IMG/VR virus record: IMGVR_UViG_3300025325_000001
Strand: one strand, 5' to 3'
Source of the DNA: a virus
Length of the DNA: 64,000 bases
In this document: in pieces, positions 9,467 through 56,588 of the stretch
Numbering within the stretch: position 1 is the stretch's first letter
Layout of the letters: every line of letters starts with the position of its first letter
Made by a program: the position numbers and the translations under genes
The notes under the pieces: generated by a model
What the model was told of the DNA's origin: nothing
The model's input: the letters and a program-made list of their open reading frames with translations, nothing else
The model's database searches: none

Positions 9467-9845
9467 CTACGTCCTCCTGTGGTGCTCTCGGAGCGGTTGC
9501 GGCTGCATGAGCAACTTCCTCGCTCACTACCATATCCTGTATAGGATAGATGCCTAGAGGCACTAGTCGTATCGCTGCCTCAGGCGTCAAAAAGCATCCG
9601 CTCGCTCGCAACTTACGGCTTTCTGCATCGGAATGCCTCTTATTGTGAGTGTCGGCCCAATCTTTCAAAAGAATCTCTACAGCCCACTTTACTTCGGGGT
9701 CAGTAAGCCACTCGACGGCGCGGGCCAGTGGAGGCTGGAAGGAATCTCCGCAAATGCGGCAATGCCTTGCTGGTCTTTCGGGATTGTACTCTAGACCTTC
9801 GAGGCTCGACAGCCCAATAGGAGTGACCTCAAAGTAGAGACTCAC
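9459..9845 (-). CDS. hypothetical protein (128 aa)
   Basis: ORF track. Four-nt overlap with the upstream gene. Confidence 0.65.
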   Translation of the reverse strand: MSLYFEVTPIGLSSLEGLEYNPERPARHCRICGDSFQPPLARAVEWLTDPEVKWAVEILLKDWADTHNKRHSDAESRKLRASGCFLTPEAAIRLVPLGIYPIQDMVVSEEVAHAAATAPRAPQEDVDG

Positions 9846-10222
9846 TCCGTTGCGCTCTCATCATTAGTCTCTTCGAGCACTGGGGTGGCTTGTAGGCGCT
9901 TGAGAAGGGCCATAGCCTTGTCCTCTTCTGCGAGAGTAGGATCGCGGCCGAGCGTCTTGTCAATGATCGTCTGCGCGGCCTTAAGGCGTACCGACTCAGA
10001 TGAGGCCATCGTGCAAAGTTCTACGAGGGTCTTGACCGCATACGGCAATGCCTGTGTGAGCATCTCGCGAGTCTTCTCAGCTTGAAGCTCACTTACGGCA
10101 TTATCCTCTAGCAGAGAGTTATTGCCAAGAAAGTCATTTAGTTTTTCGAAGTTTTGATTGTATTCCTCTAACTTGCGCTGAAGATCATCAGGCAAGTCAC
10201 TGCCCATTGGAACCATATCCAT
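9842..10222 (-). CDS. helical acidic protein (126 aa), first gene of the leftward operon; weak small-terminase-like resemblance
   Basis: ORF track. The segment AVKTLVELCTMASSESVRLKAAQTIIDKTLGR resembles helical repeats I recall in some small-terminase-annotated phage proteins. This is not a secure assignment. Confidence 0.7.
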   Translation of the reverse strand: MDMVPMGSDLPDDLQRKLEEYNQNFEKLNDFLGNNSLLEDNAVSELQAEKTREMLTQALPYAVKTLVELCTMASSESVRLKAAQTIIDKTLGRDPTLAEEDKAMALLKRLQATPVLEETNDESATE

Positions 10223-10305
10223 ATCGTCTCTCTTTTCGTAAGAATAGAGCGCCGATCTACTAGTCGCGCAGGATAGCTGTCAACGGGGTTAGTAACGGCC
10301 GCCAC

Positions 10306-10343
10306 TTGACAAGTTGTGCAAGGTCTATTGTTGTCAAAAGTGG
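10306..10343. promoter_or_regulatory. imperfect palindrome carrying TTGACA on both strands (possible divergent promoter or operator)
   Basis: ccaCTTGACAAgttgtgcaaggtctattgTTGTCAAaagtgg. No good -10 at 17 nt, but TATTGT lies 14 nt after the TTGACA. Confidence 0.3.
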
Positions 10344-10379
10344 CAACGAGCTATTTTAGAAATTGAGATAGGTATGGAC

Positions 10380-11060
10380 ACTCGAAGTCTGTTCGGGCAA
10401 CAGAGTGTTACAGTCCCTCGTTGGCGTGTGACAGCCGGCTGACGAGTTCGGGGTAGCTGCCGGCAGGGGTGACGGCTTGGGGTAGGGCTGACGGCGGGCA
10501 TACCCCGTAGTGGCGCTTGTAGTGCCCCGTAGGGGGATGCAAGCGTCCGGCATAGCTGCTACGCTCCGCGAGTGCTCAGCGAACGGGAGAGGCGCCTATA
10601 GAGAGGCGTAGGGGCATCGCCCCCTAACCACCTGCGAGCGATGCCACGCGACGCAGGCATAAACCCGATACGTGTCGGCAGAATCCGAACGCTGCTAAGA
10701 ACGGGCAACCGGCGGATACGTCATCGATGACTCGACCTACGGCCGCGAATAGCACAGCGAGCACCGTAACTATCGAGGGAGCACGCCTACCATCTGCGAC
10801 GACAGTGGCGGTATGCCCGCACAGTGTCGAACGAACAGCGCGAAGCGGTAGCGGTCTAGCGTGAGCGAAAGGTGACGCAAGCAAGGGGTCATACGCGAAA
10901 CGAGCAATCCTCGAAGCGACCGTAAGCCGTGAGCGAAGTGAGACACGTAGCAGCGGGAACGTCATAACGCCGAGTGTCGCGGGGGAGCCTATAGAGACGG
11001 TTCGGCGTGCTCGTCCCTGGTAAGGGGACAGTGTAAGCCTATGCGCACACACGAAAGGAA
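10380..11060. other. ORF-free GC-rich, purine-skewed (plus strand) block; candidate origin or large structured RNA
   Basis: No plus-strand ORF of 60 aa or more. Minus-strand ORFs are Arg/Ala/Pro-rich noise. GC is visibly above flanking DNA. Many short hairpins, including GGGGC-ATC-GCCCC at 10611 and the palindrome GTCATCGATGAC at 10720. Confidence 0.4.
10437..10510 (+). repeat. three degenerate iteron-like repeats (TGACG-N6-10-GGGGTAG / CCCCGTAG)
   Basis: GCTGACGAGTTCGGGGTAG, GGTGACGGCTTGGGGTAG and GCTGACGGCGGGCATACCCCGTAG occur in tandem. An AT-rich stretch lies upstream at 10351-10378. Confidence 0.4.
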
Positions 11061-11068
11061 CACACAGC

Positions 11069-11422
11069 ATGGCGTTTCTCACTGACATCGATCGTTCTAA
11101 CTACGTCGTCCACCCGTTCCGCACGAATGGCGAAACCCTCGCGGACTTCCGCGCGTTCGTCGCGGGGGACATGGCGCAGGCGTTCGTCCGCTGTTCGTCG
11201 CAATCGGCCAAGACTGCAATGCAGAGGGTCGCGGAGACGAACGGGTGGGAGAAATACCTTGGTAAGAAAGGCAAGAACCTCCGCAAGGCAACCTACTCGG
11301 CCGAAGGGTTTCACCGCGCGGTGACTAAGCTCGCGGAAAGTGGAATCGTCGTCACTCGTCTCGCGAATACGTCCGACGATTCCGACGTTATCTTCGAGCT
11401 ATCCCGCTCGACCGTTAGCTAA
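11069..11422 (+). CDS. hypothetical protein (117 aa), possible winged-helix DNA-binding C-terminus
   Basis: ORF track. GAAAGGAA upstream. Diverse composition despite high GC. FHRAVTKLAESGIVVTRL resembles a wHTH recognition region (weak). Confidence 0.65.
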   Translation: MAFLTDIDRSNYVVHPFRTNGETLADFRAFVAGDMAQAFVRCSSQSAKTAMQRVAETNGWEKYLGKKGKNLRKATYSAEGFHRAVTKLAESGIVVTRLANTSDDSDVIFELSRSTVS

Positions 11423-11552
11423 GCAACTACACACTCCGCGCATAGGCTCACAGTGTCCCCTAGCTAGGCGGAAAGGTGGTGAACCATGCCGCAGTATCCC
11501 TCGCAACAGTCGCGCGGGCTGTTACTGCTACTTGTGCTATGGACACGCGACT

Positions 11553-11804
11553 ATGGCTCGAAAGGCTAAGAGTCGCGGTAGGAACTTGCGCCGCACCGAA
11601 ACGCAAGCGGCGTTAGATACCGCGCGCTACGTATCAGGTGAACGTGGACGTTCGCCGGGAATGGAGCGGATTGCAATATCCGCGTCGGCGCCACGATTGC
11701 CGCGCAAGTTTCCGCGAACGCGTAAGACTCTCGCGGTCGTAGCACCGAACGGAGAACTAGCACACATGGTGACGTACTACGTAGACCCCGCATCGTTGCG
11801 ATAG
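11553..11804 (+). CDS. basic hypothetical protein (83 aa)
   Basis: Internal ATG of ORF 11340..11804 (MARKAKSRGRNLRR...). A 27-codon ORF with a better SD starts at 11486 and overlaps it. GC-rich region makes the call weak. Confidence 0.35.
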   Translation: MARKAKSRGRNLRRTETQAALDTARYVSGERGRSPGMERIAISASAPRLPRKFPRTRKTLAVVAPNGELAHMVTYYVDPASLR

Positions 11805-11914
11805 AAAACTTCTCGCGCATGGATTCTTCGCGCGGCAATACAAAGAGAGCGGAAACGCTCTTTTTGTTTGGCTGCGATCCAAAACCGAAATTTTTACGAA
11901 AGGGGGTGAGTAAG

Positions 11915-12115
11915 ATGACAACGCAGGAGTTGCAGTCGGAGTTCGAGCGGAAAAAGCACACGCTCGACGAGCTTGCAATGCAGGGTCTCATTACGCATGA
12001 AGCGTATGAGAGCCTGCTCGAACGTGTGAAGGACGAGACGTTCTTCGCAGTAAGTGTCCAGTGCGACATCGATGCACTACCCGTTACAGTCTTGCGGAAT
12101 GGACGGGCCTACTAG
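11915..12115 (+). CDS. hypothetical protein (66 aa)
   Basis: Internal ATG of ORF 11819..12115 with SD AAGGGGGTGAG 4 nt upstream (MTTQELQSEFERKK...). Confidence 0.55.
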   Translation: MTTQELQSEFERKKHTLDELAMQGLITHEAYESLLERVKDETFFAVSVQCDIDALPVTVLRNGRAY

Positions 12116-14790: not shown

Positions 14791-14798
14791 AACTTTAT

Positions 14799-14869
14799 GC
14801 GCCGCTGGTGTAACGGGAGCATACTAGGCTGTAACCCTACAGGACGAGGTTCAAATCCTCGGCGGCGCA
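14799..14869 (+). tRNA. tRNA, anticodon GTA by hand fold (Tyr), short variable loop, no encoded CCA
   Basis: Hand fold. Acceptor GCGCCGC/GCGGCGC (7 bp). D-arm GTGT-AACGGGA-GCAT. Anticodon arm CTAGG-CTGTAAC-CCTAC with one C-C mismatch. T-arm CGAGG-TTCAAAT-CCTCG. Discriminator A. Confidence 0.75.
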
Positions 14870-14923
14870 TTTGTGTAACTCACAATGAGTTGCCAATCTA
14901 CGCACAAAGAAAGGAGGGTAGAC

Positions 14924-18638: not shown

Positions 18639-18700
18639 GGGCCGGTAGCCCAACTGGTAGAGGCATCCGATAAGTGAGGGTTCGAATCCCTCCCGGCCTA
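18639..18700 (+). ncRNA. 62-nt tRNA-like element lacking an anticodon arm (tRNA mimic or tRNA pseudogene)
   Basis: Hand fold. Acceptor GGGCCGG/CCGGCCT (G-U at 1:72). TA. D-arm GCC-CAACTGGTAGA-GGC. Ten-nt linker TCCGATAAGT where 17+ nt of anticodon arm are expected. T-arm GAGGG-TTCGAAT-CCCTC. Discriminator A. Confidence 0.55.
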
Positions 18701-54048: not shown

Positions 54049-54232
54049 AGCAGAAAAAGTCTTCAAAAAAGCCGTGCAAGATTGCATCAGGTATGGCATT
54101 TATCCTGGTCCCCAGACGCTAAATGAGCTGATACATGGGCATCGAGGACGAAACATCAATGGAAGAGAATGCAGATGGAGACGTGAAATCTGCAAGGAGC
54201 TAGGATTTAAGCTGCATGGCTACAACTATTAA
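54041..54232 (+). CDS. hypothetical protein (63 aa)
   Basis: Internal ATG of ORF 54002..54232 (MSEAEKVFKKAVQDC...). Confidence 0.6.
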   Translation: MSEAEKVFKKAVQDCIRYGIYPGPQTLNELIHGHRGRNINGRECRWRREICKELGFKLHGYNY

Positions 54233-56588
54233 ACGCAAGCATCCACTTGCTGAGTGCGAAGTCTGCCCTCTCTATGAGAAGCCCTGTGCGAAATCACTGA
54301 TTCCTGCTAATCCTGTGGCTGCGGTTGTGGCTCGCTCACCAGGTTGGAAAGAGGCTAAGACAGGCGAGCCATTTACCGGACTCTCAGGGAGGGTTCTCAA
54401 TCATTTGTTGGAACAGAACGGAGTTAAACGCGAGGAGGTATTGCTTACCAATGTTGTCCTTTGTGCGCCAAATGAAGGTGAAGTACCGGGAGCGGCGATT
54501 AAAGCGTGCGCTCCACGCCTACGAGCGGAGTTGTCCGATTGTTCGCTTATTATTGCCGCTGGAAGAGAGGCGGTTAATCTGCTTGTCGGTAGAGGAGCTA
54601 TCGATCGTCACCGTGGATATAGGATTGCATCCAATGGAAAGACTCTTATTGCTACGAACAATCCCGCACTTGTCCTCAGAGACGACTCGACCTTTCCAAA
54701 CCTCAGAAAAGACTTCAAGAGGGCATTCCATCCTATCCCCGAACCCACTCTGCCACGAGTAGAGGTAATAGAAGATGCCGAGACCGCAGCAGCTTTCCTT
54801 AAAGATGTCCCGCCCGGTTCTGTCGCGGCAGATATTGAGTCTCGTGGCGGACTTTCTCATAGGGCCGAACTTGTATCCTTTCAAATTGCAATTGATGGAG
54901 GACTTGCAACTGTCTTCGGAGAGCGGGGAGGGCTATGGTTCGATACCGCTTTCATTAGAGATCACTTTCGACCCTTCCTCGAATCCAAAAACCACCGTTT
55001 CATTTGGCACAACGGAAAGTTCGACGTTAAAGTCCTCAGACATACCTATGGAATCCGAGCAAGAATAGATGAAGATACCATGCTGCTATCCTATGCGCTT
55101 GATGAGCGCTCGGGACAATCGGAGAAGCAGCACGGTGGATATCATAAGCTAGAATACCTGCTAGCCGAGGAGTTTGGATGGCCCAATTATGAGCCAGAAT
55201 CCGTCAAACAGTTTAAGAAAACCGGCATTGTTACCAATTACGACGAGTTACACACTTATGCCGGGAGGGATGCTAGTGGGACATATCAATTGTTTGAGCT
55301 TCTACCCGGACGAGTCAAGTCTGAAGAAACTGAACGTCCTTACCGAGAATTACTACTCGAAGGTGCGGAGGCTTGCTCGCGAATCGAAGTTGCAGGCTTT
55401 CGATACAACATAGTGGCGGCAGCCGATTTGATGGAAGAGGAAGTTCAGCCTGAGCTTGAGCGCAGGACTAAGAACATGCGGATGATTATTGATGATCCGC
55501 TTTTGAATCCGCGCTCGCCCAAGCAGATTTCCAACATCTTTTACAATCGCTGGAAGCTTCGACATGAGATGCAGTCTCGCCCTAATATGAAGGAATCTAC
55601 CGACGATGCCACGCTTAATGAGCTTACTGCCGGGCGTTTCGTGTCTAGGGCGGATGCTGACGTTACTACAATCAAGACTTTTGCTAAGGAGCTTAAACGC
55701 TTCAGAGAGCTTTCGAAGCAGGCGGATACCTATATTGTCGCGTTGGTCGAGAGGGCAGTTAATGACCCTGAGAATAGGCTCTATACGGATCTCCTTCTAC
55801 ATGGTACTACTAGTGGGCGGCTATCGTCGAGGAATCCAAATCTTCAGAATATCACCCGGACCAAACCCGGATTACCTGATATTCGACGCCTATTCCTTCC
55901 ATCACGGGGACGCCAGATTATACAGGCTGATTATAGCCAAGCTGAACTTCGTTGTATTGCGCACTTTTCTCAGGACAAAGAACTCCTACGAGTCTACACT
56001 GAAGACCTCGATCTCCATTCGGTAGCTGCTGAGAACTTCTATGGCCCTGACTTTATCCCTGAGCAGCGTAACCGCGCTAAGAACATGAACTTCGGTGTAG
56101 CTTACGGGCAGGGTGCTGCAACCTTCCAGGAGAAACATGAAATCCCTGAGAGAGAAGCGCAGAAGTTCATTGATTGGTGGTGGAGATACTTCTCAGGCGT
56201 AGCCGACTGGAAGCAGGAGATTATCAAGGAGATGCGGACGGGGTATGTAACGTCCCCGTTTGGAAGAAGGCGGCGTTTCTATCTTATCACGCCTGAGAAC
56301 AAGAACGCAATGATCCGTGAGGCCGTAAATTTCAAACCCCAATCCACAGCGGGTGACTTTACCCTACGATCTGTAATTCTGCTAGTAAAAGAGATCGATT
56401 GGAAGAAGGCAGCCATCGTCATCACAGTTCACGACAATATCGTGGGGGATGTGAAGGAGAGCTATATTGATGAGTACAAGGCCATTTGTGAGCAGATAAT
56501 GGTGAGCCGTCCTAGAGACGAGCTAGGTTGGACAATACCTTTCAAGATCGACATAGGAGTCGGGCCAAATTGGGCAGAAGCAAAATAG
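54216..56588 (+). CDS. family A DNA polymerase with 3'-5' exonuclease and an N-terminal UDG-like (family 4-like) domain (790 aa)
   Basis: UDG-like: CEVCPLY, SPGWKEAKTGEPFTGLSGRVL, NVVLCAP. Exonuclease: ADIES, HNGKFDVKVL, YAGRDA. Polymerase: DYSQAELRCIAHFS, RNRAKNMNFGVAYGQG, ITVHDNI. Confidence 0.95.
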   Translation: MATTIKRKHPLAECEVCPLYEKPCAKSLIPANPVAAVVARSPGWKEAKTGEPFTGLSGRVLNHLLEQNGVKREEVLLTNVVLCAPNEGEVPGAAIKACAPRLRAELSDCSLIIAAGREAVNLLVGRGAIDRHRGYRIASNGKTLIATNNPALVLRDDSTFPNLRKDFKRAFHPIPEPTLPRVEVIEDAETAAAFLKDVPPGSVAADIESRGGLSHRAELVSFQIAIDGGLATVFGERGGLWFDTAFIRDHFRPFLESKNHRFIWHNGKFDVKVLRHTYGIRARIDEDTMLLSYALDERSGQSEKQHGGYHKLEYLLAEEFGWPNYEPESVKQFKKTGIVTNYDELHTYAGRDASGTYQLFELLPGRVKSEETERPYRELLLEGAEACSRIEVAGFRYNIVAAADLMEEEVQPELERRTKNMRMIIDDPLLNPRSPKQISNIFYNRWKLRHEMQSRPNMKESTDDATLNELTAGRFVSRADADVTTIKTFAKELKRFRELSKQADTYIVALVERAVNDPENRLYTDLLLHGTTSGRLSSRNPNLQNITRTKPGLPDIRRLFLPSRGRQIIQADYSQAELRCIAHFSQDKELLRVYTEDLDLHSVAAENFYGPDFIPEQRNRAKNMNFGVAYGQGAATFQEKHEIPEREAQKFIDWWWRYFSGVADWKQEIIKEMRTGYVTSPFGRRRRFYLITPENKNAMIREAVNFKPQSTAGDFTLRSVILLVKEIDWKKAAIVITVHDNIVGDVKESYIDEYKAICEQIMVSRPRDELGWTIPFKIDIGVGPNWAEAK

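Follow-up and report, generated by a model that had tools for sequence, protein, structure and literature searches.

What does a phage keep in about 850 nucleotides (nt) of DNA that hold no open reading frame (ORF)? Positions 10223-11068 of a 64-kb window raise this question; the window, meaning the whole stretch of DNA that was analyzed (IMG/VR virus record IMGVR_UViG_3300025325_000001), covers most of the ~78.5-kb genome of an uncultured phage. Phage genomes seldom contain long non-coding stretches, and those that occur usually mark control points. This one separates a leftward block of structural or late genes (left of 10222) from a rightward block of early and replication genes (right of 11069), which encode among others a SNF2 helicase, a PD-(D/E)XK nuclease, a primase-like protein and a family-A DNA polymerase (PolA). 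An earlier note on this DNA, made from the letters alone, had proposed either a replication origin with iterons or a large structured RNA. Our preferred answer, which we hold with about half of our confidence, is that the 850-base interval is a two-way phage control region combined with the long untranslated leader of an early operon of two small genes, here called A and B, and that the end of this leader forms part of an RNase III-type long-range stem around gene A.

Near-identical assemblies of the window phage were found in several groundwater or sediment-type metagenomes. Relatives were found through the product of the first late gene (ORF 9842-10222, minus strand), which is weakly terminase-small-like (PHROG matches at E 3e-4) and has 37 homologue clusters at 34-80% identity. 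The contigs that were compared, L008-L010 and L032-L043, represent about 8 related uncultured phage lineages. The region matched no relative in INPHARED by blastn or tblastn, and the PolA of the window is at most 28% identical to that of any phage catalogued there. Scans of IMG/VR by protein and by DNA pattern gave no further relatives, or one chance match, GTDB genomes gave none, and a single metagenome pattern scan returned 20 chance matches and no true relatives. Comparison across the related lineages splits the interval into four parts (10223-10299, 10328-10421, 10422-11015 and 11016-11046), resolving the gap into a candidate late promoter box, a motif shared by seven lineages, a putative long leader that is kept in presence though not in sequence and a helix that is kept by complementarity.

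The region is non-coding, as the earlier note had stated. Between the starts of the leftward gene (10222) and the rightward gene (11069) there is no credible ORF. Stops occur in every frame, the codon log-odds of all six frames are at or below the lowest score among real genes, and tblastn of all stop-free segments of at least 20 amino acids (aa) against the relatives revealed no translated similarity. A hidden or frameshifted ORF is rejected on these three grounds. The GC-rich, T-poor and purine-skewed composition described in the note was also borne out: of all 550-nt windows in the 64 kb, those richest in GC (0.627, median 0.50) and poorest in T (0.133, 1st percentile 0.172) lie here, the region contains 58% purines, and its composition is more extreme than that of any coding part of the window. 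An antisense ORF of 154 aa (10624-11088) was set aside; it scores -0.06 and is an expected by-product of an A-poor strand. Some Joint Genome Institute (JGI) records call an antisense gene at window 10408-10965 on the minus strand (2340-2897 of L003, 2258-2815 of L006 and L007). The stated product of 113 aa does not match the 558-nt span, and no ORF with those limits exists in translation table 11; this call looks like an artefact of the A-poor strand.

The first conserved element is a motif of 95 nt at 10328-10421. It was recovered in seven lineages (the window, L009, L010, L032, L038-40, L041/43 and L037; E 1e-18 to 2e-7), in which the terminase-small-like proteins beside it are 47-80% identical, and a profile search found it only once in the 64 kb. 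Its consensus reads GTTGTCA-N4-TGrCAAC, TTTTAG, GAG(A/T)TA(GG/CT), 4 bases, GACACTC, 24-26 bases and TACAGTCCCT. Aligned with the window, the other lineages show 65-80% identity over the first 60 motif columns and ~30% directly past the motif. The sole pairings returned by RNAalifold are the 7-bp hairpin and 3 bp between GAG and CTC (10 pairs, 0 compensatory changes), and the hairpin loop varies between AAAG, AAAC, AUUA and UGGAUU. A small peptide was considered, since ATG-GAG-ATA-GG opens short ORFs in L009, L032 and L037, and was ruled out by frame shifts in L010, early stops in L038 and L041 and the absence of a start in the window. Because compensatory changes are lacking and the reading frame is not kept, the motif seems to behave as a DNA- or sequence-level signal, and not as a peptide or a covarying RNA fold.

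A helix is kept by complementarity at the right end of the interval. The two arms that flank gene A in the window can form, as sense RNA, 26 Watson-Crick and 2 G·U pairs over 31 positions (duplex -51 kcal/mol), and 28 of the 31 positions are paired in the minimum free energy (MFE) fold of the whole transcript. L038 has 25 Watson-Crick and 2 G·U pairs over 27 positions without a mismatch (-51 kcal/mol), and L009 has 23 pairs over 25 positions (-43 kcal/mol); in both, the helix brackets the first ORF after the tract. The arms of the three lineages are unrelated in sequence and hold the same position relative to that ORF, the 5' arms ending 22-28 nt before the ATG so that the Shine-Dalgarno sequence is left in the loop. 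All three helices form in whole-transcript MFE folds. Shuffling gave p <0.005 for L038, 0.005 for L009 and 0.035 for the window, and besides the gene A helix the 64 kb contain just one further inverted repeat that is as strong and has its arms 30-1000 nt apart.

The helix also distinguishes between the strands. Both non-Watson-Crick pairs of the L038 helix are G·U and form on the sense strand only; overall, 4 G·U pairs are specific to the sense strand versus 1 position that pairs only in the antisense, and the duplexes are 3-8 kcal/mol more stable as sense than as antisense RNA. As complementarity is kept at a fixed position while the sequence is free, and as the G·U pairs are confined to the sense strand, these observations argue for a helix that acts as RNA and for transcription of the DNA upstream of it. 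A near-perfect duplex of at least ~20 bp, with complementarity kept on the transcribed strand despite sequence change, is expected of an RNase III-type processing stem, and the helices of these three lineages show both traits.

Between the motif and the helix lies the ORF-free tract, which persists in place across the lineages. Past the motif it extends for ~650 nt in the window, ~410-480 nt in L009, ~530-590 nt in L038, ~240-300 nt in L041, at least 200 nt in L010 and at least 190 nt in L037. No homology was detectable between the tract of the window and those of its relatives (200-600 nt overall), and the tracts share no more 8- or 9-mers than shuffled sequences do, with the exception of one element at 11438: the 13-mer GCGCATAGGCTCA of the 3' helix arm, followed by CTAGCTAG, also occurs in the L009 tract. 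The T fraction is 0.14 in the window, 0.17 in L009 and 0.15 in L010, versus 0.23-0.29 in L038, L041 and L037. G makes up 42% of the first 150 nt of the tract, where the GC skew is +0.24.

We searched the locus against Rfam (ROOL, GOLLD, HEARO, OLE, raiA and 4227 other families), as suggested in the earlier note for the large RNAs. At the gathering threshold the window gave only two tRNA matches, both outside the region, and with E up to 10 the best match in 10100-11200 had E 0.55 (18.6 bits against a cut-off of 40). Ten related loci gave one sub-threshold match to a miRNA family (24.8 bits, cut-off 51), in L041, outside the motif and the tract. The many hairpins noticed earlier drew no backing from folding energy, z-scores of 150-nt windows on the plus strand ranging from -2.3 to +1.1. 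The z-score was -1.7 for 10380-11068 (20 shuffles), and for 10422-11015 it was -1.5 in sense and +0.5 in antisense orientation; antisense values across the region were about 0 to +0.5. Sense z-scores of the window, L009 and L038 tracts (-0.9 to -2.0) are lower than the antisense ones, and in L041 the strands are equal. The region is not a conserved large structured RNA, because it has no Rfam match, a core that is not shared, no covariation in the motif and weak z-scores. What stands of the idea of a long non-coding RNA is that the stretch is best read as transcribed, with its 3' end in a conserved long-range helix.

These elements can be joined into one model. The left end (10223-10299) would hold a promoter box and the 5' untranslated region (5'UTR) of the leftward late operon, and the motif cassette would start or gate rightward early transcription. 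The transcript would then comprise a U-poor, G-rich leader of ~600 nt, gene A and gene B, and stop near a terminator-like hairpin past gene B. The end of the leader would pair with the segment past gene A, so that a duplex of ~30 bp brackets gene A with its Shine-Dalgarno sequence in the loop. Such a duplex could be the substrate of a double-strand-specific RNase of the RNase III type, or a clamp between the 5' and 3' ends; a cut there would free the A message from the leader and determine how stable A is or how it is translated. Since there is no promoter-like site inside the tract, gene A would most simply depend on a start at or before the motif. Transcription of this kind has a parallel in L033-35, which lack the motif and carry in the same place a sigma-70-like promoter (TTGACA-17-TAGAGT), ~300 nt of non-coding sequence and a strong 13-bp intrinsic terminator. 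The unit, at about 790-1137 of L033 on the minus strand, is identical in L034 and L035, has a z-score of -4.35 with the MFE structure equal to the centroid, and matches no Rfam family. Early non-coding transcription in this clade is plausible because of this promoter-to-terminator unit.

Several points weigh against this model, the first of them concerning the promoter. A sigma-70 scan of the plus strand of 10223-11068 found no promoter, with a consensus that may not be that of the host. The homologous site of L009 scores as TTAGCA-16-TATACT, and the same register in the window is TTAGAA-15-GACACT; TACAGT offers an alternative -10 in the motif, without a -35. The motif thus fits no clean sigma-70 register, and a promoter there is possible but not compelling; with the same caveat on the consensus, a promoter could also hide in the tract. 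The helix of the window is only marginally significant on its own. L041 lacks a clean flanking helix and has a local 22-bp hairpin after the ORF instead, and L037 lacks one too, its 3' arm lying inside the ORF. The equivalence of the first ORFs is weak across lineages (E 0.03 for L038, none detectable for L009), and the model does not account for a U-poor, GC-rich composition that is limited to the close clade of the window, L009 and L010. Other identities of the motif were tried and dropped. A sigma-54 or LexA-box reading was rejected by eye, the GG/GC spacing and the second half-site not being conserved, and a likeness to promoters of single-subunit RNA polymerases (TTTAG...GACACT) was set aside, the motif being single-copy and no such polymerase being seen in the window.

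The region could instead hold a DNA site of another kind, and two such explanations were weighed. A replication origin could consist of iterons and an AT-rich patch to which the 11069 product binds, or of a G-rich transcript that primes DNA synthesis through an R-loop or G-quadruplex. A single-copy, DNA-level conserved motif with a dyad and an AT-rich centre would suit this, as would the G-rich start of the tract, with one of only three G-quadruplex-type motifs of the window (10450-10487, formed by the repeats), and a weak, sub-threshold match of protein A to the C-terminal domain of the filamentous-phage replication protein G2P (Pfam G2P_X_C, E 0.003). The details described in the earlier note turned out to be of unequal weight. 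The imperfect palindrome CCACTTGACAA-N-TTGTCAAAAGTGG is where it was placed, but its left arm (TTGACA at 10306) is specific to the window lineage and has no well-spaced -10 after it. The AT-rich stretch at 10351-10378 was confirmed (28 nt, 71% A+T), and it is the centre of the promoter-like conserved motif. Of the three tandem repeats, two are good copies (TGACG-N4-5-GGGGTAG) and the third is only partial. Tandem Repeats Finder reported no tandem repeats in the region, and the repeat search found only two-copy families of 15-30 nt with 73-87% identity, including a two-copy 15-mer. The 12-nt palindrome GTCATCGATGAC at 10720 and the 11-nt direct repeat GCCTATAGAGA at 10594 and 10987 were correctly located, but 25% of dinucleotide shuffles reach a 12-nt palindrome and 11% match the repeat; the ends of an inserted element are not indicated, because these direct repeats are at chance level. 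Like the iteron-type origins of lambda (lambda ori) and theta plasmids, the region is an intergenic site beside a small gene, with a short AT-rich patch and a few similar words. Unlike them, it has no array of at least three regularly spaced direct repeats (~17-22 bp) and no DnaA-like 9-mer with up to 1 mismatch in 10150-11150 (13 occur elsewhere in the window), its AT-rich patch sits inside the promoter-like motif, and the neighboring protein, which had been taken for a possible winged helix, does not look like an initiator in a low-confidence model, which shows beta-alpha repeats without a match in the PDB, and neither a winged-helix nor a Rep-like fold. Conservation of the G-tract cluster does not extend to L009, L010 or L038, the replication genes are 38-45 kb away, and in the flanking helix the confinement of G·U pairs to the sense strand points to a function as RNA. 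The interval is most likely not an iteron origin, and an origin of either kind is highly improbable; the tempting annotation can be removed. More improbable still is a packaging recognition site (pac or cos), with the tract as spacer DNA. The first late gene is weakly terminase-small-like, four lineages keep the motif within the divergent gap at ~110 nt or less from the start of the late operon, and the motif, present in one copy and containing a dyad, shows conservation of sequence and no covariation. However, early genes lie between the motif and the late operon in L009 (one) and in L037 (four: a methylase, DpdA, Vut_1 and another), the motif unit of L010 is inverted relative to the late operon, independent metagenome assemblies break at other positions, and the terminase assignment is weak.

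The remaining alternatives concern the tract. It could itself be the product, a stand-alone early non-coding RNA of ~0.6 kb that is freed from the primary transcript at the long-range stem and works through its composition or short motifs and not through a conserved fold; it might, for instance, be a sponge or decoy for proteins, or a U-poor RNA that resists nucleases. We consider this unlikely. The discrete unit of L033-35 at the same place speaks for such an RNA, as does L010, where the motif and ~200 nt of tract meet a convergent gene and there is no downstream ORF to lead. The composition is extreme without shared sequence (T 0.14-0.17 in the window, L009 and L010, 0.19 in the L033 RNA), the window, L009 and L038 tracts fold slightly better in sense than in antisense, and GNRA, CGAA and GCGAA words exceed the dinucleotide expectation (GNRA words 41 versus 26.4). 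The recurring GCGA of the earlier note is real and only modestly enriched (13 versus 6.9, p about 0.01). GNRA tetraloops were considered and dropped, none of these words capping a hairpin of at least 4 bp. Against a stand-alone RNA stand the lack of conservation in both sequence and structure, the weak z-scores of the window, the absence of the composition trait from L038, L041 and L037 and the lack of a terminator at the tract end in the window. A shade more doubtful is a version in which the clade has a conserved early module of control motif, long fast-evolving untranslated RNA and helix-clamped first ORF, and in which the U-poor, G-rich RNA of 0.6 kb is excised at the helix and acts alone early in infection, under selection for composition and length and not for sequence; the excised RNA might occupy a host RNA-binding protein or a host nuclease as a decoy or sponge, or might form an R-loop and act as a primer. 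Finally, the tract may be a functionless remnant or filler DNA in a hot spot of early-gene gain and loss, its composition left over from its history. This would agree with the complete turnover of sequence between lineages, with the variable genes beside the motif (methylases, DpdA, Vut_1, a beta-helix protein and a zinc-ribbon protein) and with 10264-10359, which keeps a C-terminus-like remnant (SIVVKSGNELF, then a stop) of the zinc-ribbon gene whose end lies at the motif in L010. We find it decidedly unlikely, however, as a long ORF-free tract persists in place down to 47% identity of the terminase-small-like proteins, which is unusual for tightly packed phage genomes, as stops occur in all frames without translated similarity to any relative, and as the composition lies beyond that of any coding part of the window. 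Comparative alignment brought out conserved ends, no covariation in the motif, no conservation of iterons and a core without shared sequence; the strong forms of the origin and non-coding RNA ideas fail on this hypervariable core, and the conserved ends remain. Two-way control with a putatively processed leader is the explanation that we prefer, and the features on which it is built are collected in Table 1.

Table 1. Features of the divergent region and of the adjoining A-B unit, in window coordinates.
Feature	Position	Strand	Basis or remark
5'UTR and Shine-Dalgarno sequence of the leftward late operon (predicted)	10223..10269	-	Sequence; equivalent UTRs in relatives
Conserved box, candidate late promoter/operator	10270..10293	-	ACTAACCCCGTTGACAGC then TATCCT, a TAnnnT -10-like hexamer at 10275-10270
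Imperfect palindrome CCACTTGACAA-N-TTGTCAAAAGTGG	10300..10345		Right arm overlaps the motif hairpin
95-nt motif, promoter-like or control cassette of the rightward early operon (putative)	10328..10421	+	nhmmer and profile matches
Motif hairpin GTTGTCA-AAAG-TGGCAAC	10330-10347	+	7 bp
Motif box TTTTAG	10354-10359	+	
Motif box GAGATAGG	10365-10372	+	
Motif box GACACTC	10377-10383	+	
Motif box TACAGTCCCTCG	10409-10420	+	
Lineage-specific, U-poor (T 0.14), G-rich untranslated tract, putative 5' leader of A-B	10422..11015	+	Non-coding; compositional extreme
Helix, 5' arm	11016..11046	+	Ends 22 nt before the ATG; Shine-Dalgarno AAAGGA at 11054-11059 in between
Gene A, 117 aa	11069..11422	+	First ORF past the tract; codon score 0.22, in the range of real genes
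Helix, 3' arm	11438..11468	+	Starts 15 nt past the gene A stop
Gene B, 83 aa, basic (RGRNLRRTETQA...)	11553..11804	+	Missing from the gene calls that accompany the retrieved contigs
Terminator-like hairpin AGAGCG-GAAA-CGCTCT, then TTTTGTTT	11846..11869	+	Read from sequence; end of the A-B unit

The left end of the interval carries, on the minus strand, ...AACCCCGTTGACAGC followed by TATCCT. A related box, ACAACC-N3-5-TTGcCaGC with a TAnnnT hexamer at its end, recurs in most lineages at ~30-50 nt before the first late gene, namely in L008, L009, L010, L032, L033, L036, L042 and L038; it is tandemly duplicated in L038 and not evident in L037. From this recurrence we infer a late-operon promoter with a conserved operator-like spacer at 10270-10293. 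Close to the start of the first early gene in L008, L033, L037 and L042, on its upstream side, a TAnnnT hexamer lies between paired direct repeats (A/T)GTCGGC-N6-7-(A/T)GTCGGC, which look like an operator at early promoters; this gene encodes a DNA methylase in L033, L037 and L042. In the window, frame 2 of the plus strand is stop-free over 10264-10359 and ends in ...TSCARSIVVKSGNELF and a stop, resembling the C-terminus ACAVVKTDN, likewise followed by a stop, of the L010 zinc-ribbon gene, which ends inside the motif; the stretch may be what remains of an early gene that once lay upstream and was lost. In L037 (1240-2471), the variable slot before the motif holds the DpdA and Vut_1 genes, of the 7-deazaguanine/queuosine-precursor type, beside the DNA methylase, and these are probably anti-restriction DNA-modification cargo.

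The order of motif, tract, gene A and gene B is common to the window and L038. A protein search with gene A found no homologue besides itself, and Pfam (apart from the sub-threshold match given above), PHROGs, PDB sequence profiles and Foldseek gave no match from which to assign a function. The positional counterpart in L038 is weakly similar to it and collinear (24% identity over 105 aa, E 0.03), and the AlphaFold2 (AF2) model of protein A has a pLDDT (predicted local distance difference test score) of 65, with a best PDB match at E 0.73. Gene B, a small conserved gene recovered in this analysis, is homologous to L038 6527-6841, the second gene past the L038 tract (E 2e-12 to 2e-15). Its family counts about 10 small homologues among 1.84 billion representatives, with an invariant RGR..TE.QA, and it has no match in Pfam, PHROGs or the PDB. 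The end of the A-B unit has a fold z-score of -5.1 on the plus strand (11775-11924), and the terminator scan lists the hairpin at 11846-11869 on the minus strand only.

Other RNA-related features were seen elsewhere in the window. The strongest inverted repeat with arms 30-1000 nt apart is at 38381-38488 on the plus strand, where a 28-bp stem with a branched loop of 52 nt is followed by a U-run (MFE -52.3, z -10.1). It lies ~100 nt downstream of a Ro60/TROVE gene (36732-38282) and has no Rfam match; its shape and position would fit a Y-RNA-like partner for the phage Ro60. The window encodes, besides this Ro60/TROVE-vWA protein, an RlaP-family nucleotidyltransferase (42424-43173) of an RNA-repair pathway, which suggests an RNA repair or quality-control module. 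A tRNA-like element at 18639-18700 on the plus strand scores 42.9 bits on the Rfam tRNA model, with acceptor, D and T arms and an essentially missing anticodon arm; ARAGORN does not call it, its sole call in the window being a tRNA-Tyr at 14798-14870. Among the replication genes, the family-A polymerase at 54216-56588 is fused to an N-terminal domain of the uracil-DNA-glycosylase superfamily (PF03167, 2.5e-17) placed before the exonuclease and polymerase domains.

The region shares some traits with known systems and departs from each of them. Large ornate RNAs of bacteria and phages are found by a signature that the region shows as well, an intergenic stretch that is long and unusually rich in GC (PMC12286853, PMC5737381). 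The region is alike in these respects to GOLLD, ROOL, HEARO and OLE, being long, GC-rich and intergenic in a phage (PMC12286853, PMC5737381), and unlike them in having no covariance-model match with E up to 10, no conservation of the core, weak z-scores and no GNRA-capped hairpins.

Closer parallels to the leader model are offered by the early regions of cultured phages. The lambda pL-nutL-N leader combines an early promoter, a cis element, an untranslated leader and RNase III-processed double-stranded RNA upstream of the first gene, and the short pL operon encodes a small, very basic protein. The window has a similar layout, with a putative early promoter, a conserved element, a leader, a duplex and the small basic gene B. 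The duplex is, however, long-range and encloses the whole first ORF, whereas that of lambda is a local hairpin, and the leader is about three times longer. No pair like boxA/boxB was seen in the window, the loop of the motif hairpin is not conserved, and gene B has no similarity to N (BLASTP E 19) or to Pfam or PDB entries, resembling N only in its arginine-rich N-terminus. The left end of T7 is about 900 nt of non-coding DNA with promoters A1-A3 and the RNase III site R0.3 before gene 0.3. In both phages a long ORF-free stretch opens the early region and ends at an RNase III site, a putative one here, before the first early gene. T7 differs in having several strong sigma-70 promoters, none being detectable inside the window tract, and a local hairpin as its site, and there is no relationship in sequence or genes.

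The flanking helix itself is best compared with the processing stalks of ribosomal RNA (rRNA), the long-range helices that flank bacterial 16S and 23S rRNA and are cut by RNase III. Here, too, a helix of 25-31 bp arises from the flanks of a segment of several hundred nucleotides and is kept by complementarity, but it encloses a protein-coding message of 390-470 nt with a ribosome-binding site, and its cleavage is a prediction. Should the helix prove to be a processing site, it would represent an mRNA counterpart of the rRNA processing stalk and would give a handle on the timing of early genes in a phage lineage without a cultured relative.

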